From: a virus
Taxonomy: Duplodnaviria > Caudoviricetes
Virus record (IMG/VR): IMGVR_UViG_3300032047_000023
Coordinates: 1-51,579 of that record
Strand: one strand, 5' to 3'
DNA: 51,579 bases
In this document: in pieces, positions 3,062-51,579 of the stretch
Layout: every line of letters begins with the position of its first letter
Numbering within the stretch: the stretch's first letter is position 1
Position numbers and translations under genes: made by a program
Notes under the pieces: model-generated
Database searches by the model: none
Seen by the model: only the letters and a program-made list of their open reading frames with translations
Told to the model about the DNA's origin: nothing

Positions 3062-3065
3062 AGTA

Positions 3066-4607
3066 TTATCTCCTGTCGGCTGTCTCATACGTTAAGGCTA
3101 TTGCCTGTATAGTATGACTTGCGTTTGTATTATTTGTAACATAGTTTACTGAAACAGAATTACCTGATCCTGATATATTGGTGAGAGTTTTAGGGGAGGG
3201 GTTACCATCGTATATACCCCCTGCTCCGTATATAGCTGTACCATAGACTGAAGCTGCACCCTCTGTAGTAAATTCGTAGTTAGTTGGGTTAGCTGTATTT
3301 ATATCATCGTAGTCATAAGACACACCAACAAACACTTCTGTATTACCTTCAGACTTAAGGTATGTATTTACTTTGTGTACTACCTTACGTACCTCTGGAT
3401 CTTGCATGTAAAAGTAAGGGGTTTGGTATAAACTAAATATACTTTGTCCATCAAAACTGTTACCTATTTCTTGACGATGTACCTTACCAGAATTATCACC
3501 ATGTATTACATGCTCAAACTGCCCTATGTATCCACTATCAACACAGTTAGCTTCTATACCGACCAATTGACTATACTCGAAGATACTTTGTTTATTCTGA
3601 CTTTTACGGATACCACCTATCAAAGACAAAGATGATTCATTCTTAAAGAAAAATCTAAACTGTGACTTCTTCCTAAGCACTACAATAGAAATATCTATTA
3701 TCTGTTCTGATAAATAGTAATTATCGAAGATAGACTGTATTTCTTTAGATACAGTAGCAAGTTCAACATCACCAATTTTATCAGTACCAGAAATAGGACG
3801 CATACCATCAGGACCTAAAAATAGTAAGTCACCACCAAATTCTACCACAGAGTCAGGAGCAAGACAACCCATATTTGATGTAACATTTTCTAATACAAAA
3901 TTAGATATATTATTTCCAGTTAATCTTTTTATATTGTTAGCACCAAAGATATAAAGTTGATTACGAAACTTTTTAATAGCTGTTATAGTGTACCCTACAT
4001 TAATAACACCAGCACCATTAACAGGACTAAAATCAGAATAGTTAAGAGGAGAGCTAAAGTATAAATTAGAGGATTCAGAAGAATTACCACAAAGAAATAA
4101 ATGAGAAGAAAACTCTTCTGAATATTTAGGGTTGCTAGGAGCTTGAGCGTGTGTTATTTGAGAATAAGAAGTTCCATTGTAAACAGATGCTGGGTTAACT
4201 CCGTCTGTAAGTACTAAAACTTCACCTGACCAATTAAAACTATTAAACCGTATTCTACTGACATTAGATACATTAGGGCTTCCTGCAGTTGGAATAGCTA
4301 CCCAAGAGTTACCAGACTTGTTCCATTTATGTAAATAGTTAGAACCTGTTGTAGGTTTTCTACATGCAAAAATACCATCGTCTAAGTTACCATTAACTGC
4401 TACACCTAGTACAGGACCTGTACCTGGAACAGTACCATAGTCATTTGAATAACCGCTTATACGACGATAACCACCTGATAAAGCTGGTTCATAGTTTATC
4501 ATACGTATAGCACTACCTGCTAAACTAGAGGCTTGTGTTAAAGGATCAATGTTAGTTACTAAACCTCCAGAACAAACAGCTAGGTATGTACTTAGTTTAT
4601 CTGCCAT
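3066..4607 (-). CDS. Tail nozzle / tubular protein B-like (beta-propeller)
   Basis: 513 aa, beta-rich; GCLAPDSVVEFGGDLLFLGPDG motif; lies between adaptor and fibre. Confidence 0.7.
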   Translation of the reverse strand: MADKLSTYLAVCSGGLVTNIDPLTQASSLAGSAIRMINYEPALSGGYRRISGYSNDYGTVPGTGPVLGVAVNGNLDDGIFACRKPTTGSNYLHKWNKSGNSWVAIPTAGSPNVSNVSRIRFNSFNWSGEVLVLTDGVNPASVYNGTSYSQITHAQAPSNPKYSEEFSSHLFLCGNSSESSNLYFSSPLNYSDFSPVNGAGVINVGYTITAIKKFRNQLYIFGANNIKRLTGNNISNFVLENVTSNMGCLAPDSVVEFGGDLLFLGPDGMRPISGTDKIGDVELATVSKEIQSIFDNYYLSEQIIDISIVVLRKKSQFRFFFKNESSLSLIGGIRKSQNKQSIFEYSQLVGIEANCVDSGYIGQFEHVIHGDNSGKVHRQEIGNSFDGQSIFSLYQTPYFYMQDPEVRKVVHKVNTYLKSEGNTEVFVGVSYDYDDINTANPTNYEFTTEGAASVYGTAIYGAGGIYDGNPSPKTLTNISGSGNSVSVNYVTNNTNASHTIQAIALTYETADRR

Positions 4608-6692: not shown

Positions 6693-6721
6693 GTTATACC
6701 ATACTTATACTTGTCTGTCAA
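6693..6721 (-). promoter_or_regulatory. Sigma70-type promoter for the capsid gene
   Basis: TTGACA-17nt-TATAAC on - strand. Confidence 0.8.
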
Positions 6722-13598: not shown

Positions 13599-13627
13599 CT
13601 TATATCACACACACATTAGTTTGTCAA
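13599..13627 (-). promoter_or_regulatory. Sigma70-like promoter abutting the ATG at 13598
   Basis: TTGACA-17nt-TATAAG immediately followed by ATG. Confidence 0.5.
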
Positions 13628-16098: not shown

Positions 16099-16515
16099 TT
16101 ATTTTCCTTTACTTGGGTTTGTCCACTTATCTACCATCTTTTCTCCAGAACGACCAACAACGTAGCCTCCAACACCAAGAGTTAATAGATTCCAGAGTTG
16201 ATCAGGTAATTCTAATACGTTATTCATAATCTCTGGGTAAGCGATTGCTATTATAGGAAATACTAAATAGTTGACAGCTATAATAGCTATAACAATTAGC
16301 ATAAGGAGGGGTCTCCAAGAAGAGGTCAACCAGTTGCCTGACGAAGCTTCTGCTAGTATTATTTCACCACGTACCTTCTCTATTGAGTCAGCATGTTCTA
16401 GTAAGGCTAGCTTTGTTTCTCTTTCTATTTCTGCTCTTTTATCTGAATCAGGTATAATACGTTTTAACACGTCACCCATAATAGGAGTTAGAAGAGGTAA
16501 TAAAGTATTTATCAT
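16099..16515 (-). CDS. Holin, GTA 3-TM type
   Basis: WLTSSWRPLLM TM segment and LGVGGYVVGRSGEK motif. Confidence 0.8.
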   Translation of the reverse strand: MINTLLPLLTPIMGDVLKRIIPDSDKRAEIERETKLALLEHADSIEKVRGEIILAEASSGNWLTSSWRPLLMLIVIAIIAVNYLVFPIIAIAYPEIMNNVLELPDQLWNLLTLGVGGYVVGRSGEKMVDKWTNPSKGK

Positions 16516-17022: not shown

Positions 17023-17409
17023 CTACTTAGGGTATGTACCCCAAGATAATTGATAATGAGGCCCGTCTGGAAAGGATTTCCAATCTCCTCCCCAATCCAT
17101 GTCTATTTCTAATTCTTTTGCTGCTTGCTTCATAGCATCAGCTATCTTGTAGTATAAAGGCCAATCCCATCTCACCGAACCATCTACATAAGCACCTAGG
17201 TCTACCCCGTGTCCTGTTAAATGTCTAGAGTTCAAAGTTGTTGATGCACCCCTCGCGACTAACTCTTTTTGTCTATCCAGGGTACGCATACCCTCTAAAA
17301 CAGTAAAGTCTACTTCAGTTATTTTTATAGCTCTTTCAACTACAGCTACTAAGTCCTTATGAAGACCTTCTAACCTTTGTTTACTCCGCTTACCTAATCT
17401 ATATGTCAT
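17023..17409 (-). CDS. Endolysin, M15 (L-Ala-D-Glu) peptidase
   Basis: EGMRTLDRQ, SRHLTGHGVDL and WGGDWKSFPDGPHYQL motifs. Confidence 0.92.
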   Translation of the reverse strand: MTYRLGKRSKQRLEGLHKDLVAVVERAIKITEVDFTVLEGMRTLDRQKELVARGASTTLNSRHLTGHGVDLGAYVDGSVRWDWPLYYKIADAMKQAAKELEIDMDWGGDWKSFPDGPHYQLSWGTYPK

Positions 17410-17710: not shown

Positions 17711-17989
17711 GTTATAACACATAGTGTTTTATAAGTCAAGGGGATTTTCAAAAAACTTATACTAAGTTATGCGACAAAGAAGAACTAATTCTAGCCTATA
17801 CTTAAAGTATTACTCTAAGTATTACTTATATTTATAATTAACTAGTAGTTGGACTAAACCATTATGTTTAACTTAAAGTATACTACTCGTATGTTATACC
17901 ACATAATGCCGCGAAGTCAACCCCTAATTTCATAATGTATACATATTAAAGCTTACGCTTAGTATACACTCAATATTCCCTCTTGTCAA
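17711..17989 (-). promoter_or_regulatory. Three tandem leftward sigma70-type promoters
   Basis: TTGACT-17-TATAAC (17739-17711), TTGACT-16-TATAAC (17920-17893), TTGACA-17-TATACT (17989-17961). Confidence 0.75.
17798..17881. repeat. Palindrome ATACTT-A-AAGTAT, cluster 1
   Basis: Perfect copy 17798-17810; near copy 17870-17881; degenerate copy 17811-17822. Confidence 0.7.
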
Positions 17990-20479: not shown

Positions 20480-20875
20480 ATGAAACATTTAGAAAAAGTA
20501 ATATTCGCAATAGATAACCCACACGATCTGCATCAGGTAGCGTGTTTCACTAGGTTCTTAGATACCCAACGTGCTTTGAATAGGTTATCAGGTGAAGTTG
20601 TTCAATGTATAGGCCATTGGGAAGGTATTCTTGAACCTTCATATATGATGAATGCAGTTGATTACCACGAGTTTGTCGAAAAGTCAGGCTACCTTACAAA
20701 TCAAATTTGTGTTCTTCATGTTCCTGCTGATACACGGCAACCATGTCACACGGCAACACCTTACGGTATGACTGAAAATGTGGGTCGTATGGTTAAAGTT
20801 GACAAGTCTGAATTAAACCTTGTTGACCCTTGGACTTATGTAATTGAAACAGAGGAGTATTTTCAATGTCTTTAA
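20480..20875 (+). CDS. Early hypothetical protein
   Basis: AGGAGA RBS; GHWEG..EPSY motif. Confidence 0.7.
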   Translation: MKHLEKVIFAIDNPHDLHQVACFTRFLDTQRALNRLSGEVVQCIGHWEGILEPSYMMNAVDYHEFVEKSGYLTNQICVLHVPADTRQPCHTATPYGMTENVGRMVKVDKSELNLVDPWTYVIETEEYFQCL

Positions 20876-24772: not shown

Positions 24773-24801
24773 TTGACAAGTTATTCAAGTATCGTTACAA
24801 T
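24773..24801 (+). promoter_or_regulatory. Sigma70-type promoter
   Basis: TTGACA-17nt-TACAAT. Confidence 0.75.
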
Positions 24802-25639: not shown

Positions 25640-25677
25640 AAGGGGGGCTTTACAGAGTTCCCCTTTTACTTTATAAT
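25640..25677 (+). promoter_or_regulatory. Terminator-like hairpin with an embedded sigma70 promoter
   Basis: AAGGGGGGCT/AGTTCCCCTT stem plus T-run; TTTACA(25649)-17nt-TATAAT(25672). Confidence 0.65.
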
Positions 25678-31081: not shown

Positions 31082-31110
31082 TTGACATATCACTAAATTT
31101 CTGGTATAAT
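31082..31110 (+). promoter_or_regulatory. Consensus sigma70 promoter
   Basis: TTGACA-17nt-TATAAT. Confidence 0.85.
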
Positions 31111-33972: not shown

Positions 33973-34289
33973 CAAGAAATATAGATGAATACTCTTTATG
34001 GGTAGAGGGTAAGGTAATGACAGAAGGTGAAACTAGGCTAATTGAAAATACCTTAGGTCTTATCGGAGAGTCAGGTGAGATAGCTGAAAAGATTAAGAAG
34101 CTCTTACGTGACAACACTAAAGTAGAAGCTCAAGACATTATAAAAGAATTAGGTGATGTTGCATTCTACTTAACAGCTCTGGCGAACTACTTCGGCAGCA
34201 GTTTACATGACGTGTTAGAACTTAACATGATTAAACTTAACGATAGACAAGAACGTGGTGTTCTCTCTGGATCAGGAGACAATAGATGA
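33969..34289 (+). CDS. mazG: MazG-like NTP pyrophosphohydrolase
   Basis: LGLIGESGEIAEKIKK, KELGDVAFY and GSGDNR motifs. Confidence 0.9.
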   Translation: MTRNIDEYSLWVEGKVMTEGETRLIENTLGLIGESGEIAEKIKKLLRDNTKVEAQDIIKELGDVAFYLTALANYFGSSLHDVLELNMIKLNDRQERGVLSGSGDNR

Positions 34290-34546
34290 TTAAAAGAATA
34301 TTAAACAGTAAAGCAAGGCGTATTGTATGCAATTGTATACGATCACCATTTGTATGGGTGTACAGGTTCTGGAATTACTTAATGACATGGCAAATGCACA
34401 GAGATACTATTAAGCATCTTAATCGTTTGTCTAATAGAGAATTAAGTGACATTGGATTAACTCGTGGTGACATTGACAATTTAGTTTGGATGAGAGAAGA
34501 CTTCAGACGTAGAGGTGAAGGTTACGAAGCAAATGGTGATAAGTGA
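34286..34546 (+). CDS. DUF1127 (YjiS-like) small protein
   Basis: LNRLSNRELSDIGLTRGDI. Confidence 0.85.
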   Translation: MIKRILNSKARRIVCNCIRSPFVWVYRFWNYLMTWQMHRDTIKHLNRLSNRELSDIGLTRGDIDNLVWMREDFRRRGEGYEANGDK

Positions 34547-39607: not shown

Positions 39608-40231
39608 GTGAATATATTAGAAATGGCTAAGAAAACTATAAAAGAAACAACTAAGGTTACAACAAAGGAGGCTAAACCAGAGCCTGCAATGCTACCTCCT
39701 GGTTCTTACTTAAGAGAGCACGGTATGCTTATGCTAATAGATAAGTTTGATCAAGAAAAGATTATGCCTCTAGTAGCTGCTATATATGAATACAATTTAA
39801 TGCCAGAGGATTTAAGACCAGATCAAATTACATTGGTAATCAATAGCCCAGGGGGTTCAGTACACTCAGCCTTTCACCTTATTGATGCAATAAAGATGTC
39901 AGAAATACCTGTAGTAACAATAGGTAAGGGTCTGGTTGCCTCTTGTGGAGTACTAACTATAATGGCAGGTAGTCGTCGACTATTAACACACAACACGTCT
40001 GTTATGTCACATCAGTACTCATGGGGTTCTAAAGGAAAAGAACATGAACTACATGCAATGATTAAAGAGTTTGATTTAGCAGGTGATCGTATGATCAATC
40101 ACTACAAGAAGTGTACTAAAAAGTCAGAGAAGTATATTCGTAAGAATCTATTACATCCTACTGATGAATGGCTTACTCCAGAGGAGTGTGTTAAACATGG
40201 TATTGTTGACGAAATAGTTAACACATATTAG
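39608..40231 (+). CDS. clpP: ClpP-like serine protease
   Basis: INSPGGSV; catalytic Ser (VASCG), His (MSHQ) and Asp (TDEWL); GIVDEI. Confidence 0.88.
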   Translation: MNILEMAKKTIKETTKVTTKEAKPEPAMLPPGSYLREHGMLMLIDKFDQEKIMPLVAAIYEYNLMPEDLRPDQITLVINSPGGSVHSAFHLIDAIKMSEIPVVTIGKGLVASCGVLTIMAGSRRLLTHNTSVMSHQYSWGSKGKEHELHAMIKEFDLAGDRMINHYKKCTKKSEKYIRKNLLHPTDEWLTPEECVKHGIVDEIVNTY

Positions 40232-40578: not shown

Positions 40579-43500
40579 CTAGAACATTGTTGGGTCTATT
40601 CTCATACGTTTAATTGTATCAGCAGTTTTTAACTGTGAATCTATTAACATCAACTGACCTTCACTAAGGTCACCCATGTTATCGCCTAACTCTAAATCAG
40701 ACATAGCCTTTTTAATATCATCAGCAGAATATTTAGAAACTAGGTCATACTGACTACGTAATGTTGTGCCTGTTCCGTCATATCTCGTTACTAATCGAAG
40801 TTTAGTTAATTCCTTAACTTCTTTCATTTTATCTTTCCATATTATGCGTAGTTCATCTTGTGGTAGACTACGGAACTTCATACTTTCCATCTTTTTAGTA
40901 GACCATTCCTCTATAGACTGATACATCTGGCGTTGATATTCATTAACAGCCTCCGGTATCATTCTCTTTTTGTCTTTAGACAAAGGAGCATTAATCTTCC
41001 ACTGGTCTAATCCCATTAAGTTCATAACACGTTGTGTGTTTGTTAACTCTACAGTTCTAACACCTACGTTTTTAGCAGACTGTTGTTTAGTTTCACCTGC
41101 TGCTGAAGATTGTTTAGTTGGCATATTCTCACCAGTAGTCAAGAAGTCAGTGAAAGAATCAACGTATTTAAATGACTCAGCGATAGTTCTATTTAGTCTA
41201 CTTTCTATCTGCTTTAAGTCTTTAGGGCTTTGGTCTATATCCATAATTAAACCAAATGCAGTATCAATAGGCTCTAGAGGTCTAACAAAACCAGATATAG
41301 CTTGTGCAGATATTTCTGTTACAACATTTAAACCTTCATCGTAAGCGTTATCTATCTCACCTTTAAGAATAGCCATAGTGAAGTCAGCAATCTCACCAGT
41401 AGTCTTAGTGAGGTTACGTGTAAGCCCACCTCCACCAAAGTCTTTACCAATTTGTGCTAGTATTTCTTCTGGAACTTCTTCACCTGCCATGTGGTAAGAT
41501 ACTACACGGGCAGCTGCTTTGAATAAGGAGATAGGATAATCATACTGTTGTGATACAACTTGACCATCTATTATGTTATCATATAATCCTAGTCCTGCCT
41601 TACGGTTTTCTTGTTCGTCTTGAGCCATTGTGTATATTAAACCAGTAACCACAGCACCTCTTGCCGCTAGTTCCTCTATAGGCACATCGTTATACTTACC
41701 ACTAATCTTTTTAACTGCTATATTAAGTACTGGTGTATTTTTAATACCAAAGTCTATAGTGTTGTTAAAGAACCTACCAAACGGAACCATGAAACCAAGA
41801 CCTGGGATGTTACGTGCATCTTCTACGAAACCTGCAAGCTCACCTAGTTTAGTACGGTTCTTGTATGACTTAGAGAATGTATTTTCCATAGTTTTAGCTA
41901 CAGCATCTATTTCCATTTGTTTGTATTCTTTAGTAGCCATGATCTTAACAGCTTCTGGGCTAGTGTAGAACTCATTCCAACTCTTACCAAACTTAAGTCT
42001 TAGTTGCTTGTTCATTTGACCTATATACTCTTGAGACTTAGTATAAGCATCTTGAGCATTAACAAACGTAGCTCTTTGTACAGCATTGATAACAGTATCT
42101 GATTTGTCTTGTAAGAAAGCACCTTTACCTAACGAAGCCATTTGCTCCGTAGTGTTACTGATCTCAACACCACCAGACAATGTACGATTAAGCTTGTCTA
42201 AAGCACCCGTGTTATTTTGCAGTGCACTCTTATAAGCTGCATATGTCATATCATTATCAAACGCAAACTTAACACGATCTTTAGCAGATAATAATAATTG
42301 TTTAGCTACAAAAGTATTCTTAGCACCTGCATCTGCAAAGCCTAACACTGACTGCAGTGTTCCCCTACCACCTTTAAATAAAGCTAGTGTTACATCAGTA
42401 GATATATCTAAACCTGCTGCTGCTCCATAACCTAGTACGTTTAAGATAGAAGTAGAAGGATGAGACACTAGTGATCTAATAAATTTGTTTTGAAGCTCAG
42501 ATATGTTAGATGCAACAGCACCTCTTGGTTTAAACTTATCTTTCTGTAGTACAATATCATCCATAAGATTTAAGTCTAGAGCTTCTTTCATAAAGCTGTC
42601 CATATCTAAATCTTCTACGTTAACATCTAGTCTCTTAGCAACCTGCATAACACTATTCATACTACGAGCACTTGCGTTCATTCTAGAGGCAAAAGCATCA
42701 CCAAATGTTTCTGGTGTAATCTTAGTATTCTTGCGTTTAGCTTTACCGCCAAATGCTTTCATAATACCATCAATATCAGTTTGATCTAGCTCTTCTTTCA
42801 TAAAGTCAGCTATCCAGTTTGATATCTTATCGTCATCAGTACGCTTGCTAAATAAGTAGCCACCCTCTTGCATGATCTGCGCGAGACCCTTAAGGTTGTT
42901 TTCACCTTCGCCTTTATATATACCTAGTAGTACATCAATAAAGAAGTCAGTATCACCTTTAGTGATATCGTCTCCTGACTTAACCTTCTGTAACCAAGTA
43001 GTTGTACCTTCTGGTTCTTTTTCTACAAAAGACTTGATAGCATCTTGCATTTCTTTAGCTATCTGTTTAGGGGATACCTTTTTTACAGTCTCAGTAATAA
43101 GGGCTGTGTCAGATGTACCACGTTTAAGTACTACACCTGCTTGTACTGTACCCATAGCCATAGCTGACAAAGCAGCAATACCAACAGCAGTTGTACTAAT
43201 TTCTTCCTGTACGTCAGTGTCGACTAATGCACGTTGATATAGGTACTCAAAACCACCATTTGTAGCTGCATCAAACGCTGTTACAGTAGCTATCTCTTTA
43301 AGTGCTCCTTTATTAAGTACTTTCTTTAGACCTTTGTTAGCCACCATCTTAGCAGAAAACTCAGCTACTTCTTTAGTAGTATTAACAGTAGCTACTTTAG
43401 CGGCTGATTTAAGAACTTTAGTACCTGCTTTAGCAGCTATTTCTTTAGAAGCACCTGCCATTAGTTGCTTAGTTACTTCTTTCATAGCTAACTTCTCAGC

Positions 43501-44259
43501 AGTCATAACAGAAGTTTTTACTGCAGTACCACCTACAGCTTTGCCTATAAACCCACCTACCAAGTTCACAGGATCGAGTATAACAGAACCTACGTAGTCT
43601 TTAATACCTTCTCCAAATTCACTCCAAGTAACACCTTCACCAGTTAAGCCTTCCATCTTTTCAAAGATAGAGTATGCTTTACCTGCCATTAGTAGTTTCT
43701 CAGGGTCCTTCTTAGCATCCATTAGCCAATCAACTTCGGCTATAGCTTTAATAGAATTACCTGCAGATACTCCTCGTCTATTGTTAAGGAATGTATCTAC
43801 AATTTCTTCTCTACTCTTATTCTCAACAGCTTGTATACCATACCTAGCTTTAACAAAGTCGTTGATAGGATTAAAGAGTTCATCACGCTCAGACATATCA
43901 TCTTGTGAATATGTAAAAGCTTCAACACCTTTAGGTAGTTTAACCAGTCCGTCCTCGTCCAGCAGACTGTTTGATTCAATAGTTTCAATAGTAGAAGTTT
44001 TTTGAACATCTACTTCTCGCATCCATGAAGGAAGCTCTGTGAGACCCTTTTCTTCCTCTTCAACTACTCTCATCCATGAAGGAAGCTCATCGCTCTCCTC
44101 GGCTTCTACAGGGGCTTCTGGAGCTACTTCTGGCTCCTCATCTACTAGTCTCATCCACGTAGGTACTTCTAAATCTGTACTAGGTGAGAATACTGGTTTA
44201 TTTAATCTTTCAAGACGATCTTGTGCTGTCTCTAACCCAACAGGTGCTCTTGCCGGCAT
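40579..44259 (-). CDS. Large internal virion (DNA ejection) protein
   Basis: 1226 aa, helical; last gene of the structural arm (position of T7 gp16 analogues). Confidence 0.7.
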   Translation of the reverse strand: MPARAPVGLETAQDRLERLNKPVFSPSTDLEVPTWMRLVDEEPEVAPEAPVEAEESDELPSWMRVVEEEEKGLTELPSWMREVDVQKTSTIETIESNSLLDEDGLVKLPKGVEAFTYSQDDMSERDELFNPINDFVKARYGIQAVENKSREEIVDTFLNNRRGVSAGNSIKAIAEVDWLMDAKKDPEKLLMAGKAYSIFEKMEGLTGEGVTWSEFGEGIKDYVGSVILDPVNLVGGFIGKAVGGTAVKTSVMTAEKLAMKEVTKQLMAGASKEIAAKAGTKVLKSAAKVATVNTTKEVAEFSAKMVANKGLKKVLNKGALKEIATVTAFDAATNGGFEYLYQRALVDTDVQEEISTTAVGIAALSAMAMGTVQAGVVLKRGTSDTALITETVKKVSPKQIAKEMQDAIKSFVEKEPEGTTTWLQKVKSGDDITKGDTDFFIDVLLGIYKGEGENNLKGLAQIMQEGGYLFSKRTDDDKISNWIADFMKEELDQTDIDGIMKAFGGKAKRKNTKITPETFGDAFASRMNASARSMNSVMQVAKRLDVNVEDLDMDSFMKEALDLNLMDDIVLQKDKFKPRGAVASNISELQNKFIRSLVSHPSTSILNVLGYGAAAGLDISTDVTLALFKGGRGTLQSVLGFADAGAKNTFVAKQLLLSAKDRVKFAFDNDMTYAAYKSALQNNTGALDKLNRTLSGGVEISNTTEQMASLGKGAFLQDKSDTVINAVQRATFVNAQDAYTKSQEYIGQMNKQLRLKFGKSWNEFYTSPEAVKIMATKEYKQMEIDAVAKTMENTFSKSYKNRTKLGELAGFVEDARNIPGLGFMVPFGRFFNNTIDFGIKNTPVLNIAVKKISGKYNDVPIEELAARGAVVTGLIYTMAQDEQENRKAGLGLYDNIIDGQVVSQQYDYPISLFKAAARVVSYHMAGEEVPEEILAQIGKDFGGGGLTRNLTKTTGEIADFTMAILKGEIDNAYDEGLNVVTEISAQAISGFVRPLEPIDTAFGLIMDIDQSPKDLKQIESRLNRTIAESFKYVDSFTDFLTTGENMPTKQSSAAGETKQQSAKNVGVRTVELTNTQRVMNLMGLDQWKINAPLSKDKKRMIPEAVNEYQRQMYQSIEEWSTKKMESMKFRSLPQDELRIIWKDKMKEVKELTKLRLVTRYDGTGTTLRSQYDLVSKYSADDIKKAMSDLELGDNMGDLSEGQLMLIDSQLKTADTIKRMRIDPTMF

Positions 44260-44270
44260 ACTTTATTCCT

Positions 44271-46355
44271 TTATTGGTTTGAGTTAACTAATGATTTTAT
44301 TCGTGCCTCTATTTCATCCTCACTCATATGGATAGTTGCGTTTTTATATCTTTTCTTGAACTCTTCCATAGCCCACTTAACTCTATTTCTCTTAGGTGTT
44401 CTAGGAGGTATAGAATCTACTACATCAAATACTTTATCACTTACTACAGTAGCGTTTGCTTCTGCTAAATCCATAGGCTCTTCTACAGTACCTTCACCTT
44501 TAAATGATCTATCTACAAACGTATCTAAATCTATTACTTTCTCTCCAGGTTTACTGCCCTCTACTTGTTCTTCAGTAGTTCCTTTGCCCATTCTAGATAA
44601 GCCTTCTGCTTGCTTATCAAAGATCTTCTCTACTGCACCTGATTCTTTAAGGTTATCCTCTTCTTCAAACTTCTTCATTTCAGCTAATTCTTTTTCCATT
44701 GCCTCCAACCTTAGTGTCTCTCGGTCTTCGTCAGTTACAATAGGTGTTGTACCCATACCTGCAGGTATGTTATTAGGGTAGTTTTCTTCTTCTGAGTAAG
44801 GGTCTACTTCAAATACTTTGTTACCCATTTTAACAAACCCTGAGAATCCTTTTAACCTAGCTTCTTGTATGTCCTCAGGAGAGTTGAATACAGTAGGATT
44901 GCTCTTACTATTCTCTAAAAGATCAGTTTGAGTATCACCACCAGTTCCACCACCAGTTCCACCACCAGTTCCACCACCAGTTCCACCACCGCTAGTAACT
45001 TCAGCCTCTACAGGTTCTCCATAAAATGACTGAACAAGAGGGTTTTTATCTAAGTTAAACTCAGATTGTATAGATATACCGTAGTTTAAATCAGCTAGTA
45101 TTTGATAGCCTCTAGCATCATCTTTATCTTTTTTAATAAATGCTAATGCTCTTTCTACTTTATCTTTTTTATCTTCATCTGTTATCTCACCAACAGCTAT
45201 ACGAGCTTCGTTAGCTATAGCAGTCTTCCAGATGCCTTCACCTTTAGTAACTTCATTAGCGTCTGGAGGTGTACCTGTTTGTTGGAATAACTCTTCAGTA
45301 GGTCTGTACCCTTTAAGAACCATTAGACCTTTAGCCATAGCTTCTGGATTCTCTAATCCATCACCCTTCATCATATCCTTTACAATTTCTAAAGCTTCTT
45401 CCTCGTTCTTACCTTCTACTTGACCTAAGTAACTAAAGTACTGAGGTAATTCATTTAACTGTACTTCATTACCTTTTTTAGCTTGTGCATCTACAAAAGC
45501 TTGTAACGATGCCTGTGCTGAAGGACTAGATATAGCAGCTTTAAAGAATGGAGATTCTTGTTCTTGTTTAGTTAACTTAGTGTTGTAATTAGCAGTAAAC
45601 TTCTTAGACACAGCTACAGTAGCGTTAGTGCCAATAGGTACAGCCTTGCCTGAGTCTCCTGATAAAGCACCAAGTAAAGATGAAGGTATCATGTCTATAA
45701 CTGCTTGTGTATACGCTAAGTCTGCCGCACGTTCTTTAATATCAAATCCTTTTTGTGCTAAGTCTTCAGCAACACCTGCTGCTCTCATCTGCTCTTCAAA
45801 CTGGTCTTCACGCAAGTTAAAGTTCTTTTCAGCCATCTCTTGACCAAACTTAGTTATTTCTATTTGACGAAGTGATTCAGCTATTGCTCTAGCTTCTGCT
45901 CTATTGTCGCGTATATCTTGTGCTCTATCTCTTAGTTTACCATACTTAAACTTTTCAATAGTAAGTTTGTAGAGCTTATCTGTTTGTTCTTGAGCTTGTT
46001 GATTAGTAAGTTTAGTAAAGTCAAACTTTTCAACAGCCATACCCCACTCTTTGTTCTTCCATTTTTCATCAAGCTCTATCTTTTTTTCTAAGTTTTCTTG
46101 AGCTAGTGCTTCTCTTGCTAACCTATCTTCACGACCTTCTTCATACGTTTTTACTTGTATATCGTAATTTGATTGCCAGTTTTTTTGCTGTTGATCACGA
46201 AAAGCTTTTGTATTAGCATCAGTTAACAAATCTCTACTCTTAGTATACTCAAATGTAGCCTGACGTTCTGCTCTACGTGCTTCTAATTCTTCTTGCTCTG
46301 CCTTCGCTTCTTTAGCGTCCTTAAATCCTTTTGCTACACCTGCCCAAAAACTCAT
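44271..46355 (-). CDS. Internal virion/ejection protein
   Basis: MSFWAGVAKGF amphipathic N-terminus; coiled coil; GGTG linker. Confidence 0.65.
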   Translation of the reverse strand: MSFWAGVAKGFKDAKEAKAEQEELEARRAERQATFEYTKSRDLLTDANTKAFRDQQQKNWQSNYDIQVKTYEEGREDRLAREALAQENLEKKIELDEKWKNKEWGMAVEKFDFTKLTNQQAQEQTDKLYKLTIEKFKYGKLRDRAQDIRDNRAEARAIAESLRQIEITKFGQEMAEKNFNLREDQFEEQMRAAGVAEDLAQKGFDIKERAADLAYTQAVIDMIPSSLLGALSGDSGKAVPIGTNATVAVSKKFTANYNTKLTKQEQESPFFKAAISSPSAQASLQAFVDAQAKKGNEVQLNELPQYFSYLGQVEGKNEEEALEIVKDMMKGDGLENPEAMAKGLMVLKGYRPTEELFQQTGTPPDANEVTKGEGIWKTAIANEARIAVGEITDEDKKDKVERALAFIKKDKDDARGYQILADLNYGISIQSEFNLDKNPLVQSFYGEPVEAEVTSGGGTGGGTGGGTGGGTGGDTQTDLLENSKSNPTVFNSPEDIQEARLKGFSGFVKMGNKVFEVDPYSEEENYPNNIPAGMGTTPIVTDEDRETLRLEAMEKELAEMKKFEEEDNLKESGAVEKIFDKQAEGLSRMGKGTTEEQVEGSKPGEKVIDLDTFVDRSFKGEGTVEEPMDLAEANATVVSDKVFDVVDSIPPRTPKRNRVKWAMEEFKKRYKNATIHMSEDEIEARIKSLVNSNQ
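44938..44990. repeat. 12-bp tandem repeat CCACCAGTTCCA x4.4 encoding (GGGT)n
   Basis: Exact tandem copies at 44938, 44950, 44962 and 44974. Confidence 0.95.
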
Positions 46356-46858
46356 AACTCTTCTCCTCGTCTAGCCATTAAGCCTCTAGGTTCTTCCTTA
46401 GGCATATCCATAGGTAACTCTTCTTGCATAGGCTCCTCAGAGTCCATGTCTTCTTCGACTTTCATATCCAACTCAGCAAGAATGTCTTGAGCTTTTTTCT
46501 CATTAATTTGATATTCTATTTCTTCATCTTGTTTACTGTTGTCAGGTATACCTTCTTCAAAGTCAATTCCTAACTTTTCAGCAGTAGATGTTATATATTC
46601 GTGTATAACAGGTGCTATTATTAGAGAAATGTCGATACTGTGTATCCCACCCATTACAGCACCCCTTAGTAAACCTTCAGTAATTGTAACAACATCAAGG
46701 CCTAGCTCTAGTGTGTCTGCTAATGCTTTAAACTTTTCCTCATCTTGAAGACGGTTTAAATGCCACATAATAGAGTCTTCTGCAGTAGTTAACTCAGGAG
46801 GATTTTCATACGGTGCATTCTTCGGCTCTGCAGTCAGGGACTGTCCAGGTATAATCAT
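46352..46858 (-). CDS. Conserved virion-associated protein
   Basis: IPGQSLTAEPKNAPYENPP N-terminus; GLMARR C-terminus. Confidence 0.65.
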   Translation of the reverse strand: MIIPGQSLTAEPKNAPYENPPELTTAEDSIMWHLNRLQDEEKFKALADTLELGLDVVTITEGLLRGAVMGGIHSIDISLIIAPVIHEYITSTAEKLGIDFEEGIPDNSKQDEEIEYQINEKKAQDILAELDMKVEEDMDSEEPMQEELPMDMPKEEPRGLMARRGEEL

Positions 46859-46870
46859 TTACATATTCCT

Positions 46871-47530
46871 CTATTTGAATTTGTTGTAGTAGTCAGACAG
46901 TCTAGTACCAAACTTATCAGCAGGGTTATACTTACCTTTAGTTTTAAAGAATTTCTTCATACCTGTCTTACCACCTAAGTGAGCAACTGCTCTTAAACCA
47001 TCTCGTGACATTGTACCAGATTTATCTAAACTGTCAATAGTTTTATCTATATCTTTCATATGCCATTCAAATACTTTTTCTTGTAACTTAGGCTTACGTT
47101 TAAATGTCTCTGTTGAGAACTCCATGCCCTCTGCTTTCATAAAGTCTTTTAACCTAGCATCTGAAAACTGATAAGAACCAGTCATCTTACGACCATCGTC
47201 TAATTCAATCTGTGTGTCTGACTTACCACTGCTTTCAGATTCTTTTAGTTTCATAGCAAAGCCCTTCATGCCAAGACCTTCTGGTCTAGCTTTAGGTTTT
47301 TGCATAGACCTCATCAAAGAAAGACCCATACCCTCCTCAGATATTGGACTTCGTTCTATACTCTCAGGCCGTAGACGTGGACGCATAAGACCTGATTCAC
47401 TTGTTTCCTGTTCTACCCCTTCTTCTGGAGCTTCTCTTCCTATATCTGTTTGTAGTTTTTCTATAAGAGCCTTACGAGCCATCTCTAAGTTCTTTAGGTA
47501 CATACCTTTATTCATTGGAACCATTATCAC
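46871..47530 (-). CDS. Virion-associated lysozyme/lytic transglycosylase-like protein
   Basis: ESSG catalytic motif, GSYQF, LQE, AHLGG. Confidence 0.7.
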   Translation of the reverse strand: MIMVPMNKGMYLKNLEMARKALIEKLQTDIGREAPEEGVEQETSESGLMRPRLRPESIERSPISEEGMGLSLMRSMQKPKARPEGLGMKGFAMKLKESESSGKSDTQIELDDGRKMTGSYQFSDARLKDFMKAEGMEFSTETFKRKPKLQEKVFEWHMKDIDKTIDSLDKSGTMSRDGLRAVAHLGGKTGMKKFFKTKGKYNPADKFGTRLSDYYNKFK

Positions 47531-49524
47531 ATTCCTCCTAACATTTGACCAAAGAGATATCCAATACCTTCTTTATCTTTTTGTTTATTAGCTTGATTAG
47601 TTTCCCACATAGATAACGTCTTAGACTCATTAGCTAAGAAAACACTAAGTGCTCTGTCAGTAGCACTTTCAGATTGTTTGAATGCGTAGTCCATTATATC
47701 ACGCTCACGTTGCCATACTGTGTCTAGCATTTGTTGTGTAAACATGTTAGCTGCTTTAGCTGACTCTAGGTTGGCTAAGTTTTGTGCTTGTGAATTAACT
47801 GTAGTAGCGTTCTGCCTCCACTGAGCATTAGCTTGAGCAATTACTAAAGCATTCTGTGCATTAAACTGATCTCTCTGTACATCCATACCTGCATTAAACT
47901 GTTGTACTTGTGTAGCCATGTTAGCAAAAAACTGATTAGTTTGGTTTTCACTACTTGCATTAAACTGCTTGGCTGCATTAATAGCTGATTGATCACTAAA
48001 GATAGCTTGTATATTAGATTGTGCTTTAAACAAGTCTGTTTGTTGTTGAAGGTCCATATTTTTCATGTCCATTTGCATGAAAGACTGAGCATTCATAACT
48101 GCTGCTTGCTGACGATTGTTTAAGTTTTGCATGTCCATTTGTGACATAGCAGCTGCATCAGCCATCATCTTAGCATTTTTAGCATTAAGATTAGTAAGAT
48201 CAACTGTCTGCGCCATACGAGCGTTTTCAAGAGCTATTTGCTGTTCAGCAGTAAAGTTCATGTTAGCTATATCAGCTACTCTTGACGCATTAGCTACTCT
48301 TGACTGAAACTCTTGTGAAAACTCTATGTTTAAAAACTGAGCACGTTGCTGTGCCGCAAACATTGTAGTCTGCTGTCTATTAGACAAGTTCATAGACTCA
48401 AACTTAGCAAATGTTTGAGCGTCTGCCATAGCAATAGGTATTGCTGACTCCATAGTCGCTTGTATTAAAGCTTGACCTGCCATACTAGAGGCTCCCAAAC
48501 CACGAGCTGCCATCTGTGCAGTAGCGTTACGTAGTGCACCAGCTGCCCAAGCTGGGGGAGAGTCTGCATCAAAGTCTGCCATTAGGCTACTCATTTGACC
48601 TTTTACAGTAGCCTGTAGTGAAGGGTCAGCTTGAGCTGCTTGTATGTCAAGAGCTTCATCAACTGCTGCCATATCTACTGCAGAACCTGAGATCATTTCT
48701 CCTGATTCTATTGTACGTTTAGCGGCAGGAGATACTGTCTGAGCACTAGTTATTTGCTGTGCTTCCAGTTCTCTAGCAGATAGAGTAGTAGGGTCTTTAG
48801 TTTGTGCTTCGACTATAGCAGAGGGATCAACAACTCCTTGTACAGCCTCTAAACTATCAGTTACACCTGTTACACCGCTGACAGCCTTAGTAGGGTCTAC
48901 AGAGGCTGCTTTAAAGGCATCTGGGTCTGTTATCTGAGGAGCATCAGGGTCTAGGATACCTGTACCTTCTGCAATCGTAGTTCCTTCAGCACTTGGGTCT
49001 ATTTGAGAAACTGCTGCAGTAGTAGCCATAGTTCCAGGTGATGTGACAGAGGCTTCCATCATATTACCTGATGCATTCTTAATCTTATCTGATTGTGTCT
49101 TAGCTTTTTCTTGCTGAGTAGGAGGAGTAGTAGGGTCTTCTTTAGTTCCAGGATCATTTTCATCTACAGGAGTTGGAAGTACAGGTGTTTCATCTATCAT
49201 AGGTACATCTTGACCCATACCTCCCATTGGCATAGGAGTACTTGGTTGTACTGCTGAAGGACTAGGAGCAGTACCTCCTCCCCCACTATCTGTAGAAGCC
49301 ATCTGGTTAGCTCTTGCCTGTAAGGTAGCAGGGTCTCCACCCATAACGACAGCACCTGTATTAGTGTTAGTTAAAGGAGCACCTGTCCTAGTGTTAGTGA
49401 TAGGCTGAGCAGTAGTAGGCCTATTAGCTGCTTGCTTCTTACCCTCTTCAGTACCTCCACCAAATGTAATCAAACCAGAACCAACTGGATTAAGTATTCT
49501 TTTCATTGAAAACGGGTTATACAT
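47527..49524 (-). CDS. Q/N/A-rich DNA pilot/ejection protein
   Basis: Long QFNA-type helical repeats; RGLGASSMAGQA motif; low-complexity N-terminus. Confidence 0.7.
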   Translation of the reverse strand: MYNPFSMKRILNPVGSGLITFGGGTEEGKKQAANRPTTAQPITNTRTGAPLTNTNTGAVVMGGDPATLQARANQMASTDSGGGGTAPSPSAVQPSTPMPMGGMGQDVPMIDETPVLPTPVDENDPGTKEDPTTPPTQQEKAKTQSDKIKNASGNMMEASVTSPGTMATTAAVSQIDPSAEGTTIAEGTGILDPDAPQITDPDAFKAASVDPTKAVSGVTGVTDSLEAVQGVVDPSAIVEAQTKDPTTLSARELEAQQITSAQTVSPAAKRTIESGEMISGSAVDMAAVDEALDIQAAQADPSLQATVKGQMSSLMADFDADSPPAWAAGALRNATAQMAARGLGASSMAGQALIQATMESAIPIAMADAQTFAKFESMNLSNRQQTTMFAAQQRAQFLNIEFSQEFQSRVANASRVADIANMNFTAEQQIALENARMAQTVDLTNLNAKNAKMMADAAAMSQMDMQNLNNRQQAAVMNAQSFMQMDMKNMDLQQQTDLFKAQSNIQAIFSDQSAINAAKQFNASSENQTNQFFANMATQVQQFNAGMDVQRDQFNAQNALVIAQANAQWRQNATTVNSQAQNLANLESAKAANMFTQQMLDTVWQRERDIMDYAFKQSESATDRALSVFLANESKTLSMWETNQANKQKDKEGIGYLFGQMLGGM

Positions 49525-49526
49525 TC

Positions 49527-49943
49527 TTAGAACATCCTCTTGTGTAACTTGTTCCTATTATAGAATCTTCGGAAGTGGACTTGATTAGCGGTTCCGTATA
49601 GTTCTGTAGTCGTGTTCCTTATGGCTCTCATCATCTTACGTGTGTGACCAAAAGGAGCTATAAATTCTATACCCCATAACTTATCTGAAGTATTCTGTTT
49701 GTAATCTTTTGCAGTAGGTTGATACTTATCGTTTAAGAAAAGATTAGACTTAGTAGTTGATAACCAACACCAAGTTATTAATCCTACAGGTCTAGTATCT
49801 TCATAATAGATTCTAATCTTATTATGCTCTATAGGAAGAAGAAGAAAGGTATTAACTTGACTTGGAGTATAGTAAGAGTGTATATCTCCTAACTCCAATA
49901 AGCTAATACCGTCTACTACTGCTTTGTACTTGTCTATAACCAT
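49527..49943 (-). CDS. HlyC/CyaC-like toxin-activating lysine acyltransferase
   Basis: GDIH, LLPIEHNKI, PVGLITWCWLS and LWGIEFIAPFGH match the HlyC family layout (SxxH...W..DWIAPFG). Confidence 0.8.
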   Translation of the reverse strand: MVIDKYKAVVDGISLLELGDIHSYYTPSQVNTFLLLPIEHNKIRIYYEDTRPVGLITWCWLSTTKSNLFLNDKYQPTAKDYKQNTSDKLWGIEFIAPFGHTRKMMRAIRNTTTELYGTANQVHFRRFYNRNKLHKRMF

Positions 49944-49981
49944 ATAGTATACCTATATACATCCGGGGCAACCTTAAGTTA

Positions 49982-50010
49982 ATTATACACATGTTTTACA
50001 CATCTGTCAA
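49982..50010 (-). promoter_or_regulatory. Consensus sigma70 promoter for the acyltransferase-ejection operon
   Basis: TTGACA-17nt-TATAAT on - strand. Confidence 0.85.
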
Positions 50011-50029: not shown

Positions 50030-50275
50030 TTATTCAGCCGTATAACCATTACCAGCAGTAATAGCTGCATTAGCCGCAGTCATACTTTCATCTTTCCAGT
50101 AATCTTTAGCAACCATTAGTTCTAGGTGCTGAGTATTACGATCCACACAGTCTTGTCGATCTTCTGCATCATCATCTGCCATAGCATTACCTGCTATTAC
50201 GTCATTGATAAGTGCAACTGAGTCACCCATTGCTGAGTAGTTCTGTGCAATTTGTTCTGCTGTTAATTCATCCAT
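50030..50275 (-). CDS. Small acidic tail-fibre-associated protein
   Basis: AAGGAG RBS; directly after the fibre; VDRNTQHLELM motif. Confidence 0.65.
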   Translation of the reverse strand: MDELTAEQIAQNYSAMGDSVALINDVIAGNAMADDDAEDRQDCVDRNTQHLELMVAKDYWKDESMTAANAAITAGNGYTAE

Positions 50276-50278
50276 TGT

Positions 50279-51579
50279 TTATGCTCCTTCTAGGTTTGCA
50301 ACTTTAGCTTCAAGGGTTTCTATTCTAGCCATAGCTTCTTGTAGTGCTTTAAAGGCTTTTATCATTAATACTGTTGTTTTTACTGACTTGAAGCCATCTT
50401 GACCGTCTTTAACAACACCGTTTAAACCAGCAGTCTCAAGTTCTTGTGCAATCCAACCTATCTGTTCTGGAGCATCATCTGCAAATTCTTCAACATCAGC
50501 GTTAAACTTATATTTTTTTACAACAGCGGCCTTAACGTCATCCCATTGTGAGTTAGCCGTTGTAATTTGCTGTTTTAATCTTTGATCAGATATAGTTCCA
50601 TATGACCCAGAACGTGTGGCAATATCACCGTCTGCTTCCATATACAAGGTAGTCGTATTAGAGGAAGGGTAGTCAGAAGTTACAACTAAAACATTATTAT
50701 TTTGTGCCGACACTGAGTTATCAAATATTGCTGTGCCACCAGAATCAATCCGCATCCTAGGATTACCATCCCCATCAGACAGCACGATGTTGTTGCTTGA
50801 GGTGCGGAGGTCTAGGCCGCCAGTGTTGCCGTTGTAGCGTCCAATGATTGTGTTGTCGTGACCTGTGGTTATTAAATCACCTGCGTTTGTACCTATAAAG
50901 GTGTTGTTGAAGCCTGTGGTGCATGAGTATCCTGCGGATTGACCAAAAAAGGCATTAAAAACATTGCCTGTATCATTAGATAAATAACCAGCTTGTCGTC
51001 CAACAAATGTGTTATAGTTTCCAGTAGCGTTAGTATACCCTGCCTGATACCCAACTGCGGTGTTGGCGATTGCGGTGGTGTTATTAGAAAGTGCTTGTGA
51101 ACCAACAGCAACATTATAACTGCCTGCAGTATTGTCGTACATACTCTGATTGCCCATACTAACATTAAACGTACCTGTAGTATTAGAGTATAATGCACGA
51201 TAACCGTGAGCATCATTATCGCTTGCTGTAGTGTTTGCATACAAGGCTTGATAACCAATGGCAGTATTTACTTCGCCTGTCGTATTACTAAACCCAGCCC
51301 GATAACCAACAGCCGTGTTGCTGCTTGCGGTGGTGTTACTTTGTAGTGCTTGGCGACCTACTGCTACATTATAAAATCCAGAAGAACAACTGTACAAAGC
51401 GGATGCACCAACAGCCACGTTATCTCCTCCAGTAGTGTTATAATACAACGCATCAAGACCTATACCTACGCTTGCCGAACCAGTTGTAGTTCCGTACATA
51501 GAATTTTTACCCAGAGCAGTGTTGTAGCTTGCAGTAGTACCTGAATATAAAGAAAATGCACCTAAAGTAGTGTTGCTTG
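50279..51579 (-). CDS. Tail fibre C-terminal part (5' partial): NTAVG beta-repeats and S74-type intramolecular chaperone
   Basis: Frame open to the window edge; ~14-aa N[TV]A[VI]GYQA repeats; SDQRLK autocleavage motif; terminal coiled coil. Confidence 0.88.
   Translation of the reverse strand, partial: SNTTLGAFSLYSGTTASYNTALGKNSMYGTTTGSASVGIGLDALYYNTTGGDNVAVGASALYSCSSGFYNVAVGRQALQSNTTASSNTAVGYRAGFSNTTGEVNTAIGYQALYANTTASDNDAHGYRALYSNTTGTFNVSMGNQSMYDNTAGSYNVAVGSQALSNNTTAIANTAVGYQAGYTNATGNYNTFVGRQAGYLSNDTGNVFNAFFGQSAGYSCTTGFNNTFIGTNAGDLITTGHDNTIIGRYNGNTGGLDLRTSSNNIVLSDGDGNPRMRIDSGGTAIFDNSVSAQNNNVLVVTSDYPSSNTTTLYMEADGDIATRSGSYGTISDQRLKQQITTANSQWDDVKAAVVKKYKFNADVEEFADDAPEQIGWIAQELETAGLNGVVKDGQDGFKSVKTTVLMIKAFKALQEAMARIETLEAKVANLEGA

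Follow-up and report, generated by a model that had tools for sequence, protein, structure and literature searches.

How the ejection proteins of short-tailed phages pass into or across the Gram-negative envelope is still poorly understood, and one virus record from IMG/VR, IMGVR_UViG_3300032047_000023, raises the question of whether a fatty acyl group could take part. The record (51,579 bases, 38% G+C, classed linear, completeness estimated at 93%) was analysed over its whole length, called the window here, and Pfam matches across its open reading frames (ORFs) place it with podoviruses of the HMO-2011/SU10 type. On the minus strand, a 138-amino acid (aa) ORF (49527..49943) resembling HlyC, the acyltransferase that activates RTX toxins, directly precedes a 665-aa ORF (47527..49524) presumed to encode an internal virion or ejection protein. 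The original prediction for this locus, made from the sequence alone, was that the HlyC-like enzyme lipidates an ejection protein and in this way helps it to insert into the host envelope. We found that in related phages the enzyme gene is paired, in an all-or-none manner, with a sharply defined glycine-tipped N-terminus on the next protein. This pairing occurs in two architectures and implies a testable chemistry.

The 138-aa ORF encodes an HlyC-family acyltransferase

The product of the 138-aa ORF is a member of the HlyC/toxin-activating acyltransferase (TAAT) family, which belongs to the GNAT superfamily. It matched the Pfam HlyC family PF02794 with an E-value of 2.7e-16 and 60.1 bits (cutoff 25), the same assignment was precomputed for 46/46 close homologues, and phmmer aligned it with the ApxC structure 4whn (E 4e-5). 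In the phmmer alignment, His22 (in the motif GDIH) falls on His35 of the 4whn chain and Glu93 (in WGIEFIAPFGH) falls on Asp104. His35 and Asp104 lie 69 residues apart, which equals the spacing between the published His24 and Asp93, the latter being the residue that we take to be the acidic member of the ApxC dyad, a label checked by residue spacing only. Both the label His24 and the model of a His/Asp dyad are taken from passages of a publication on TAATs (PMC8510554), which puts forward the Asp as general base and describes variants with His changed to Ala as partly active.

The predicted structure agrees with this assignment. An AlphaFold2 (AF2) model of the enzyme, built from an alignment of 27 sequences, had a predicted local distance difference test score (pLDDT) of 87.6, and its top three Foldseek matches in the PDB were chains of 4whn (E 2e-8 to 1e-7, query TM-score (TMq) 0.77-0.79). 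The next PDB matches were generic GNAT domains, from E 1e-2. The profile search and the alignment with ApxC thus bear out the original description of an HlyC-like gene with the catalytic His kept and Glu as the acidic residue, and the best structural match is the ApxC fold and not an unrelated one.

No RTX toxin or type I secretion gene had been seen in the genome, and none was found here. When 67 ORFs were scanned with Pfam and the entire record, estimated to be 93% complete, was searched in all six frames, neither HemolysinCabind (PF00353) nor the PP-binding family (PF00550) that includes acyl carrier protein (ACP) was detected, and ABC, HlyD and TolC families were not found in the Pfam scans of the 67 ORFs. 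Fused forms of enzyme and substrate were also absent among the longer proteins searched, a negative result that is weak evidence.

A strong promoter and tight spacing to the next gene

A sigma-70-type promoter, TTGACA-17-TATAAT, is read ahead of the acyltransferase gene on the minus strand at 49982..50010 (in reading direction 50010..49982(-)), and it is the only 12/12 site between 40.3 and 51.6 kb. Across the whole window, seven sites have at most one mismatch, compared with 0.91 expected from shuffled sequences; they lie at 6693-6721(-), 13599-13627(-), 17961-17989(-), 24773-24801(+), 25649-25677(+), 31082-31110(+) and 49982-50010(-), and two of them are perfect. It appears that the transcription units of the phage are served by the RNA polymerase holoenzyme of the host. 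Among relatives, the perfect promoter is kept approximately 60-70 nucleotides (nt) upstream of the acyltransferase gene in 28 of 75 distinct upstream regions. We conclude that the 138-aa gene is transcribed from a strong promoter of its own.

The stop codon of the acyltransferase gene and the ATG of the 665-aa ORF are 2 nt apart. At the 124 related loci where the distance was measured, the start of the downstream ORF ranges from an 11-nt overlap to 3 nt past the stop codon of the enzyme gene, and this tight spacing suggests translational coupling of the enzyme and the next gene. The perfect promoter and the 2-nt gap are as originally described.

The protein after the enzyme begins with one of two glycine-tipped N-termini

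The only isolate in the phage collection with a homologue of the enzyme is Roseobacter phage CRP-235, whose gp30 (33% identity) is annotated as 'putative toxin-activating lysine-acyltransferase'. A genome-map legend for HTVC023P-type pelagiphages in a preprint names 'HlyC, toxin-activating lysine-acyltransferase', without comment in the part concerned (10.1101/2019.12.14.876532). Literature searches that paired phages with acyltransferases, acylation or lipidation turned up no discussion of the role of the phage HlyC-type gene. In IMG/VR, relatives were present in two overlapping sets of 135 and 136 candidate stretches, and the group is common in marine viromes there; a profile run against 1.84 billion representative proteins had 905 matches with E <= 1e-3, 194 with E <= 1e-10 and 14 with E <= 1e-30.

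A downstream ORF of at least 100 aa, or one running off the contig end, was present in 203 of 205 loci carrying the enzyme, and the 203 loci were reduced to 111 distinct downstream N-termini on the basis of the first 60 residues. Two classes accounted for all of these, with 0/111 falling outside. In the larger class (70/111), a leader of about 18-25 residues starting (M..)YNPF(M/S)P runs into glycines, with GG in 69/70 N-termini and three or more G in 67/70. The pattern of this class is YNPF...(F/Y/R)GGGG, in which an aromatic residue usually precedes the Gly run (F 45, Y 11, R 7 and W 2 in an earlier set of 72 N-termini that includes a few leaderless ones). The second class (41/111) has no leader, and its members start directly with MGG (35) or MSGG (6), for example MGGGGGDTTNVTNTGLGDDQY in CRP-235 gp29 or MGGSSPAPAP. 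Such starts were confined to this position: 0/497 of the remaining distinct ORFs (100 aa or longer) at these loci began with MGG or MSGG.

For the leaderless proteins, no relationship to the 665-aa protein was detectable, and the genomes that encode them have a separate p665-like protein further downstream with an unrelated N-terminus. Because leaderless phages put the tip on a different protein body, it is the Gly tip that tracks the enzyme; the protein body does not. Adjacency of the enzyme gene to the next gene of a virion- or ejection-type operon, which the original prediction had implied for related phages, is conserved. A second Gly-tagged substrate was considered on account of CRP-235 gp25 (MGFWSDTFGGG) and one ORF of locus L183, and was rejected as a rule because the p665-like proteins of L281-L283 (leaderless; two 100% and one 88% complete) have unrelated N-termini.

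The 665-aa protein of the window belongs to the leader class. Its start, MYNPFSMKRILNPVGSGLITFGGGTEEGKK, contains the short leader followed by FGGGTEEGKK that had been read originally, and conservation in relatives delimits an N-terminal module (49453..49524, minus strand) that consists of the leader MYNPFSMKRILNPVGSGLITF (residues 1-21) and GGG (residues 22-24). YNPF is kept across proteins that share 17-30% identity over the first 70 residues, and this conservation supports the upstream start of the 665-aa ORF as the likely one. The protein Atlas entry of the 665-aa protein begins at Met7 (window 49507-49524(-)), and gene callers can therefore clip the YNPF leader.

Further motifs are present shortly past the Gly run, namely F(T/K)S(S/T)xPEL.G(Q/K)x(Y/F) in many leader-class proteins (e.g. 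L029:2076, L031:6423, L155, L156 and L161) and TGLGD(D/S/E)QY in most leaderless proteins (e.g. L001:12407 and L201-L237); they could be part of the recognition element. In the leaderless-class phages, the genes of the Gly-tipped and the p665-like proteins are separated by a lysozyme gene and by a small ORF whose product has a signal sequence of the lipoprotein type (CRP-235, which is L001, 13887-15041; L282, 2930-4084; L283, 4463-5614). The small ORF is possibly a spanin gene, and the virion operon of these phages thus includes lysis genes.

Leader and enzyme occur together within the p665 family

The C-terminal domain of the 665-aa protein has homologues that are widely distributed among phages without the enzyme, of the HMO-2011 type and others. 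Examples are HMO-2011 gp25, CRP-2 gp49 and HTVC103P gp59, and at least 548 IMG/VR stretches contain members of the p665 family without the enzyme. The YNPF leader was present in 67/68 distinct p665-family proteins from enzyme loci versus 0/52 from enzyme-less loci; these counts cover distinct members with a complete N-terminus and adequate upstream DNA, five loci with less than 450 nt upstream having been set aside. The single exception in the enzyme loci is CRP-235 gp25, and the enzyme's neighbour in that phage is gp29, which starts MGGGGG. One of the enzyme-less proteins carries GGG by chance.

In an alignment of 33 full-length sequences, the two sets were told apart only by the four leader columns Y, N, P and F. 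When presence of the enzyme was mapped onto a maximum-likelihood tree of the C-terminal domain (109 rows), 7 changes of state were required, and well-supported branches force at least 6 of these. The enzyme and the leader have therefore been gained or lost repeatedly, always together. Enzyme-less p665-family proteins often have a different conserved N-terminal module, such as MAKKFAGFTPEQ...GKI... or MA(V/M)F(K/R)AFKPEAMNKIA..MGY.G.M (loci L046-L119, e.g. L057:1553, L060:1817, L068:4036 and L099:3943), which may be a targeting or assembly signal that replaces the YNPF-Gly module.

The 665-aa protein and the presumed ejection operon

The 665-aa protein has a disordered N-terminal third rich in T, P and G and a conserved, Q/N/A-rich helical C-terminal domain (approximately residues 200-665). 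Its AF2 model is of low confidence (pLDDT 58.8), with long helices over residues 300-663. Profile searches found no relative in Pfam, PHROG, NCBIfam or PDB sequences, Foldseek with the low-confidence model gave none either, and a feature search in the protein Atlas returned viral clusters only, with no common Pfam family found. A below-threshold Atlas lead (0.82) to a cluster with 22% P22_gp7 members was treated as chance level. The label 'ejection operon' is presumed from position, size, composition and a muralytic neighbour, and Hardies et al. used the same criteria for divergent podoviruses in the passages that deal with them (PMC4819975). The pilot or ejection identity originally assigned to the 665-aa protein draws on its position, its helical Q/N-rich body and its neighbours; a comparison with T7 gp14 and P22 gp7 by hhalign revealed no detectable homology.

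The genes follow one another on the minus strand in the order tail fibre C-terminus, 81-aa ORF, promoter, 138-aa, 665-aa, 219-aa, 168-aa, 694-aa and 1226-aa ORFs. The last tail gene before the operon (50279..51577) codes for a tail-fibre or spike protein, of which the C-terminal part is present, with a domain of the intramolecular chaperone type (Pfam Peptidase_S74, E 1.3e-8; tail-fibre PHROGs), and the 81-aa ORF between this gene and the promoter (50030..50275) matches phrog_8475, a family of unknown function (E 0.0037). On the other side of the 665-aa ORF, the 219-aa protein (46871..47530) has an endolysin-like C-terminal part (phrog_26675 'endolysin', E 6.8e-12, residues 102-216). Since a separate lysis cassette with a three-transmembrane holin (16099-16515) and an M15 peptidase (17023-17409) sits elsewhere, we infer that this muralytic-like protein is more likely entry-associated.

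The remaining three proteins complete the operon. The 168-aa acidic protein (46352..46858) follows the p665 homologue in most related loci, and the 694-aa protein (44271..46355), a presumed internal virion protein, is syntenic in relatives; neither has a Pfam or PHROG match. The 1226-aa protein (40579..44259), also syntenic in relatives, is presumed to be the largest internal virion protein. In a tblastn search it weakly matched the protein annotated 'internal virion protein D' in HTVC142P, a T7-like Pelagibacter phage (E 3e-6, 21% of the query), as well as large proteins of CRP-9, CRP-207 and CRP-603. Among PDB sequences, no match was found for the 1226-aa or the 219-aa protein.

A possible acylation of the glycine tip and its alternatives

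With a little less than even confidence, we favour the reading that a TAAT dependent on host acyl-ACP acylates the oligo-Gly N-terminus of the first protein of the internal virion operon, after removal of Met or of the leader, and that the acyl chain serves as a lipid anchor in the envelope. A TAAT-family enzyme would then have been recruited into the 'internal virion protein A' (IVP-A) slot of a marine HMO-2011/SU10-like podovirus, and its functional partner would be the N-terminal oligo-Gly module of the next protein. Host acyl-ACP would be the donor of a fatty acyl group to be put on the N-terminus, most likely on the alpha-amino group of the first Gly, with a nearby Lys as second choice. 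In leaderless relatives (MGGGG...), the first Gly would be exposed by removal of Met; in the phage of the window, it would be exposed by removal of the approximately 20-residue YNPF leader, comparable to P22 gp7, which loses 20 residues. The lipid would act as a membrane anchor once the ejected protein is out of the capsid and reaches the host envelope.

Proteins that start Met-Gly are typical substrates of methionine aminopeptidase, and the MGG proteins should therefore begin with a free Gly; that leaderless proteins start with exactly MGG directs attention to the N-terminus as such. An N-acyl-Gly, which the original prediction had mentioned as a second option, would fit the conserved oligo-Gly N-terminus better than a Lys acceptor. 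The more specific claim, that this virus-encoded, acyl-ACP-dependent TAAT lipidates the free N-terminal Gly of the first internal or ejection protein once Met or leader has been removed, is doubtful and in our estimate rather unlikely to hold in full.

Binding alone would also account for the correlation between module and enzyme. The protein might be a non-catalytic morphogenetic factor like T7 gp13 or P22 gp14, which would bind the N-terminal module of the next protein and aid its loading into the procapsid, with no acyl transfer. The passages on IVP-A in PMC4819975 describe these proteins as needed for morphogenesis and not retained in virions, and the IVP-A slot as filled by unrelated proteins in some phages. 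We nevertheless judge such an assembly role to be improbable in view of the conservation of the dyad. Among 115 distinct phage homologues the acidic residue is present in all (Glu in 95, Asp in 20), Glu for Asp being a conservative change that is presumably competent, and the dyad His is present in 109, with Tyr in the remaining 6, where the acidic residue is retained. Such a dyad would suit an active enzyme better than a mere scaffold. Moreover, the match is to the specific TAAT family and fold rather than to a degenerate GNAT, and the leaderless partners offer little to bind except the Gly tip. In three loci with Tyr variants (L161, L170 and L181), the downstream protein retains leader and Gly run.

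A GK-type Lys acceptor had been proposed originally, meaning that the enzyme acylates an internal Lys in the Gly-Lys context of the 665-aa protein (GGGTEEGKK), as HlyC does on HlyA. TAATs are Lys acyltransferases, the sites of HlyA lie within Gly-Lys motifs, and the acylated Lys of CdiA is likewise not invariant, according to the passages on these substrates in PMC8510554; in the subgroup of the window and some others, a G-K is indeed found shortly past the Gly run. However, only 21/72 distinct N-termini have a Lys within 10 residues past the run and 45/72 have one within 20 residues, whilst 10/72 have no Lys at all from residue 1 to 30 past the run. The sole Lys column with at least 70% conservation in enzyme-linked proteins (K500) is equally conserved in proteins without the enzyme, and acylation of Lys leaves the exact MGG start of the leaderless partners unexplained. 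Since the lysines of GKK are not conserved and there is no enzyme-specific Lys column, the Lys site is not supported and we regard it as distinctly unlikely. The earlier interpretation was right about the enzyme and its neighbour but probably wrong about the site.

The nature of the transferred group also has to be considered. With 138 aa, the phage proteins fall about 30 residues short of ApxC (169-170 residues in the 4whn chains), enzymes of the GNAT superfamily use many donors and weaker GNAT matches were seen in Foldseek, and the record has no ACP gene; the enzyme could on these grounds move an acetyl, aminoacyl or unusual acyl group to the Gly tip from a donor other than fatty acyl-ACP. 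We give this little credence, since the closest relatives in structure and sequence are acyl-ACP-dependent TAATs and ACP is present in every bacterial host. Arg125 and Arg126, which are nearly invariant among the 115 homologues, would in addition suit binding of an acidic carrier protein, although this is a guess. Least probable of all is a target other than the next protein, such as another virion protein (e.g. the tail fibre), a host envelope protein or a lipid: a physical link between the enzyme and the 665-aa protein is putative, but the enzyme gene is set apart from that of the tail fibre by the promoter, and over 111 distinct contexts nothing except the N-terminus of the next protein co-varies with the enzyme.

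Several observations weigh against acylation of the Gly tip. To our knowledge, TAATs act only as Lys epsilon-acyltransferases, and acylation of an alpha-amine would be new chemistry for the family. Six of the 41 leaderless proteins start with MSGG, which leaves Ser and not Gly after removal of Met, 1/70 leader-type N-termini (L157/L158) lacks any GG, and Tyr replaces the dyad His in the 6 enzymes mentioned. The leader codons lie within approximately 70 nt of the enzyme gene, and co-inheritance of the two is partly physical linkage; the leaderless class is the more independent line of evidence, because the Gly tip there sits on another protein. The relation to T7 gp13 and P22 gp14 is only positional and at the level of the fold (hhalign probability <=1%). 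The N-terminus of mature P22 gp7 was reportedly found by Edman sequencing and would be unblocked, and if so an IVP-A need not acylate an alpha-amine. In the literature searched, virion proteomics of these phages was not found.

The search for a leader peptidase was also negative. A ClpP-family gene (39608-40231(+); Pfam CLP_protease, E 3e-27), located at the end of the replication and metabolism arm and convergent with the 1226-aa gene, was dropped as a candidate; it is present in 2/5 leader-class records and 0/5 leaderless records, and the leader-class records without it are 82-87% complete. There is no CRP, HMO-2011 or Pelagibacter phage among the matches listed for the ClpP-like gene (25 of 105 records). 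Head maturation or leader removal are conceivable roles of its product.

Other features of the record

Elsewhere on the minus strand, Pfam matches identified an SU10-type portal and adaptor, a P22-type coat protein and the large terminase, and on the plus strand DNA polymerase A, a primase-helicase, ribonucleotide reductase, ThyX, PhoH and MazG. Two tail-fibre-like ORFs stand at the record ends, one exiting at the left end (2-3088(-)) and the other entering from the right end (50279-51577(-)); these may belong to a single gene that the record ends interrupt, or a segment may be absent. The product of an ORF at 20480-20875(+) has a weak match to the S-adenosylmethionine-lyase family (E 2.7e-6, 27.8 bits against a 28-bit cutoff) and may have an anti-restriction function. 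A DUF1127 small protein is encoded at 34286-34546(+).

Implications for phage entry

The gene name in databases and in a figure legend was already known, as were acetyltransferase-like IVP-A genes. The new observation is the pairing with the Gly-tipped N-terminus. The gene at the head of the operon belongs to an enzyme family of known chemistry and its presumed target is short and sharply defined (MGG..., or leader-F-GGGG), and the idea is therefore directly testable; one cultivated phage, CRP-235, has the system. The words acyl, acetyltransferase and myristoyl are absent from the searched passages of a 2022 review of ejection proteins (PMC8954989).

If acylation of the Gly tip is confirmed, phage entry would have protein lipidation among its tools, and the TAATs, whose known substrates are RTX toxins and CdiA, would gain a further kind of substrate, with alpha-amine chemistry that is new for the HlyC family. 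It would also give the first catalytic explanation of the acetyltransferase-like IVP-A slot in podoviruses, a working hypothesis for the puzzle of T7 gp13 and P22 gp14, and, among bacterial viruses, a counterpart to the N-myristoylated penetration proteins known from animal viruses.

Comparison with known systems

The closest known enzymes are HlyC, CyaC and ApxC (PF02794; 4WHN). The phage enzyme shares their family, their fold (TMq 0.79) and a His/acidic dyad at equivalent positions, and its gene likewise lies immediately upstream of that of the presumed substrate. It differs in being about 30 residues shorter and in the use of Glu for Asp in 95/115 homologues. The context is different as well, a virion operon in a record without RTX toxin or type I secretion genes, and the presumed substrate has an N-terminal oligo-Gly module and no conserved Lys.

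In position, the gene corresponds to IVP-A. The passages in Hardies et al. 2016 (PMC4819975) report that T7 IVP-A, together with several genes syntenic to it, is found to 'match as an acetyltransferase', that IVP-A heads the internal-virion-protein operon, and that P22 and epsilon15 have IVP-A/IVP-B pairs. The T7 record shows gene 13 (138 aa) with its own promoter phi13, followed by genes 14, 15 and 16. The P22 record shows gene 14 (151 aa) followed by gene 7, with the annotation 'N-terminal 20 amino acids cleaved by host Salmonella OpdA protease', and mature gp7 starts KGGKGG according to this annotation. The phage gene of the window, like T7 gene 13, P22 gene 14 and the epsilon15 equivalent, is a small GNAT-superfamily gene at the head of an internal-virion-protein operon, after the tail genes; it shares with T7 gp13 the length of 138 aa and a promoter of its own, and with the P22 pair the arrangement in which the first ejection protein, encoded after gene 14, loses a 20-residue leader and exposes a Gly-rich end, a loss that in our phage is putative.

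The differences from IVP-A are also clear. With hhalign, the 27-sequence profile of the enzyme gave probabilities of 0.4% against T7 gp13 and 1.0% against P22 gp14, single-sequence targets that limit sensitivity, and at E <= 0.1 Pfam gives HlyC only for the phage enzyme and no gp13/gp14-type family. The phage enzyme has a defined catalytic dyad, whereas in the parts of the literature consulted neither gp13 nor gp14 is assigned catalytic residues or a chemistry. Weak fold matches in BFVD (E 0.07, TMq 0.43-0.55) were to a Klebsiella phage protein named 'membrane-associated initiation of head vertex' and to the 'host range protein' of Escherichia phage P694, which, judging by their names, may be gp13-type proteins. 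The relation to IVP-A is one of position and superfamily and not demonstrated family membership.

Acylation of an N-terminal Gly is well known from animal viruses, in the form of N-myristoylation of penetration proteins released from capsids. N-myristoyltransferase resembles the enzyme proposed here in being a GNAT-fold enzyme with an N-terminal Gly acceptor on a capsid-released, membrane-breaching protein, which makes it a functional analogy. It is, however, a two-domain host enzyme dependent on coenzyme A, whereas the phage enzyme is a single-domain, virus-encoded TAAT for which N-terminal acylation is hypothetical.

The nearest precedent for a change of substrate is class IV contact-dependent inhibition. 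CdiC, a TAAT, attaches 3-hydroxydecanoate to a Lys in the receptor-binding domain of CdiA, and this enables CdiA to engage the outer membrane of the target bacterium, as described in passages of PMC8510554. As is proposed for the phage, an HlyC-family enzyme has been co-opted there for a non-RTX protein that engages the Gram-negative envelope from outside, and the acceptor residue of CdiA is poorly conserved. CdiC acts on an internal Lys, whereas the conserved element in the phage is the extreme N-terminus and the lipid is putative. The context of RTX toxin and type I secretion is nonetheless not obligatory, because CdiC lacks it too; it defines the classical operon and not the enzyme family.

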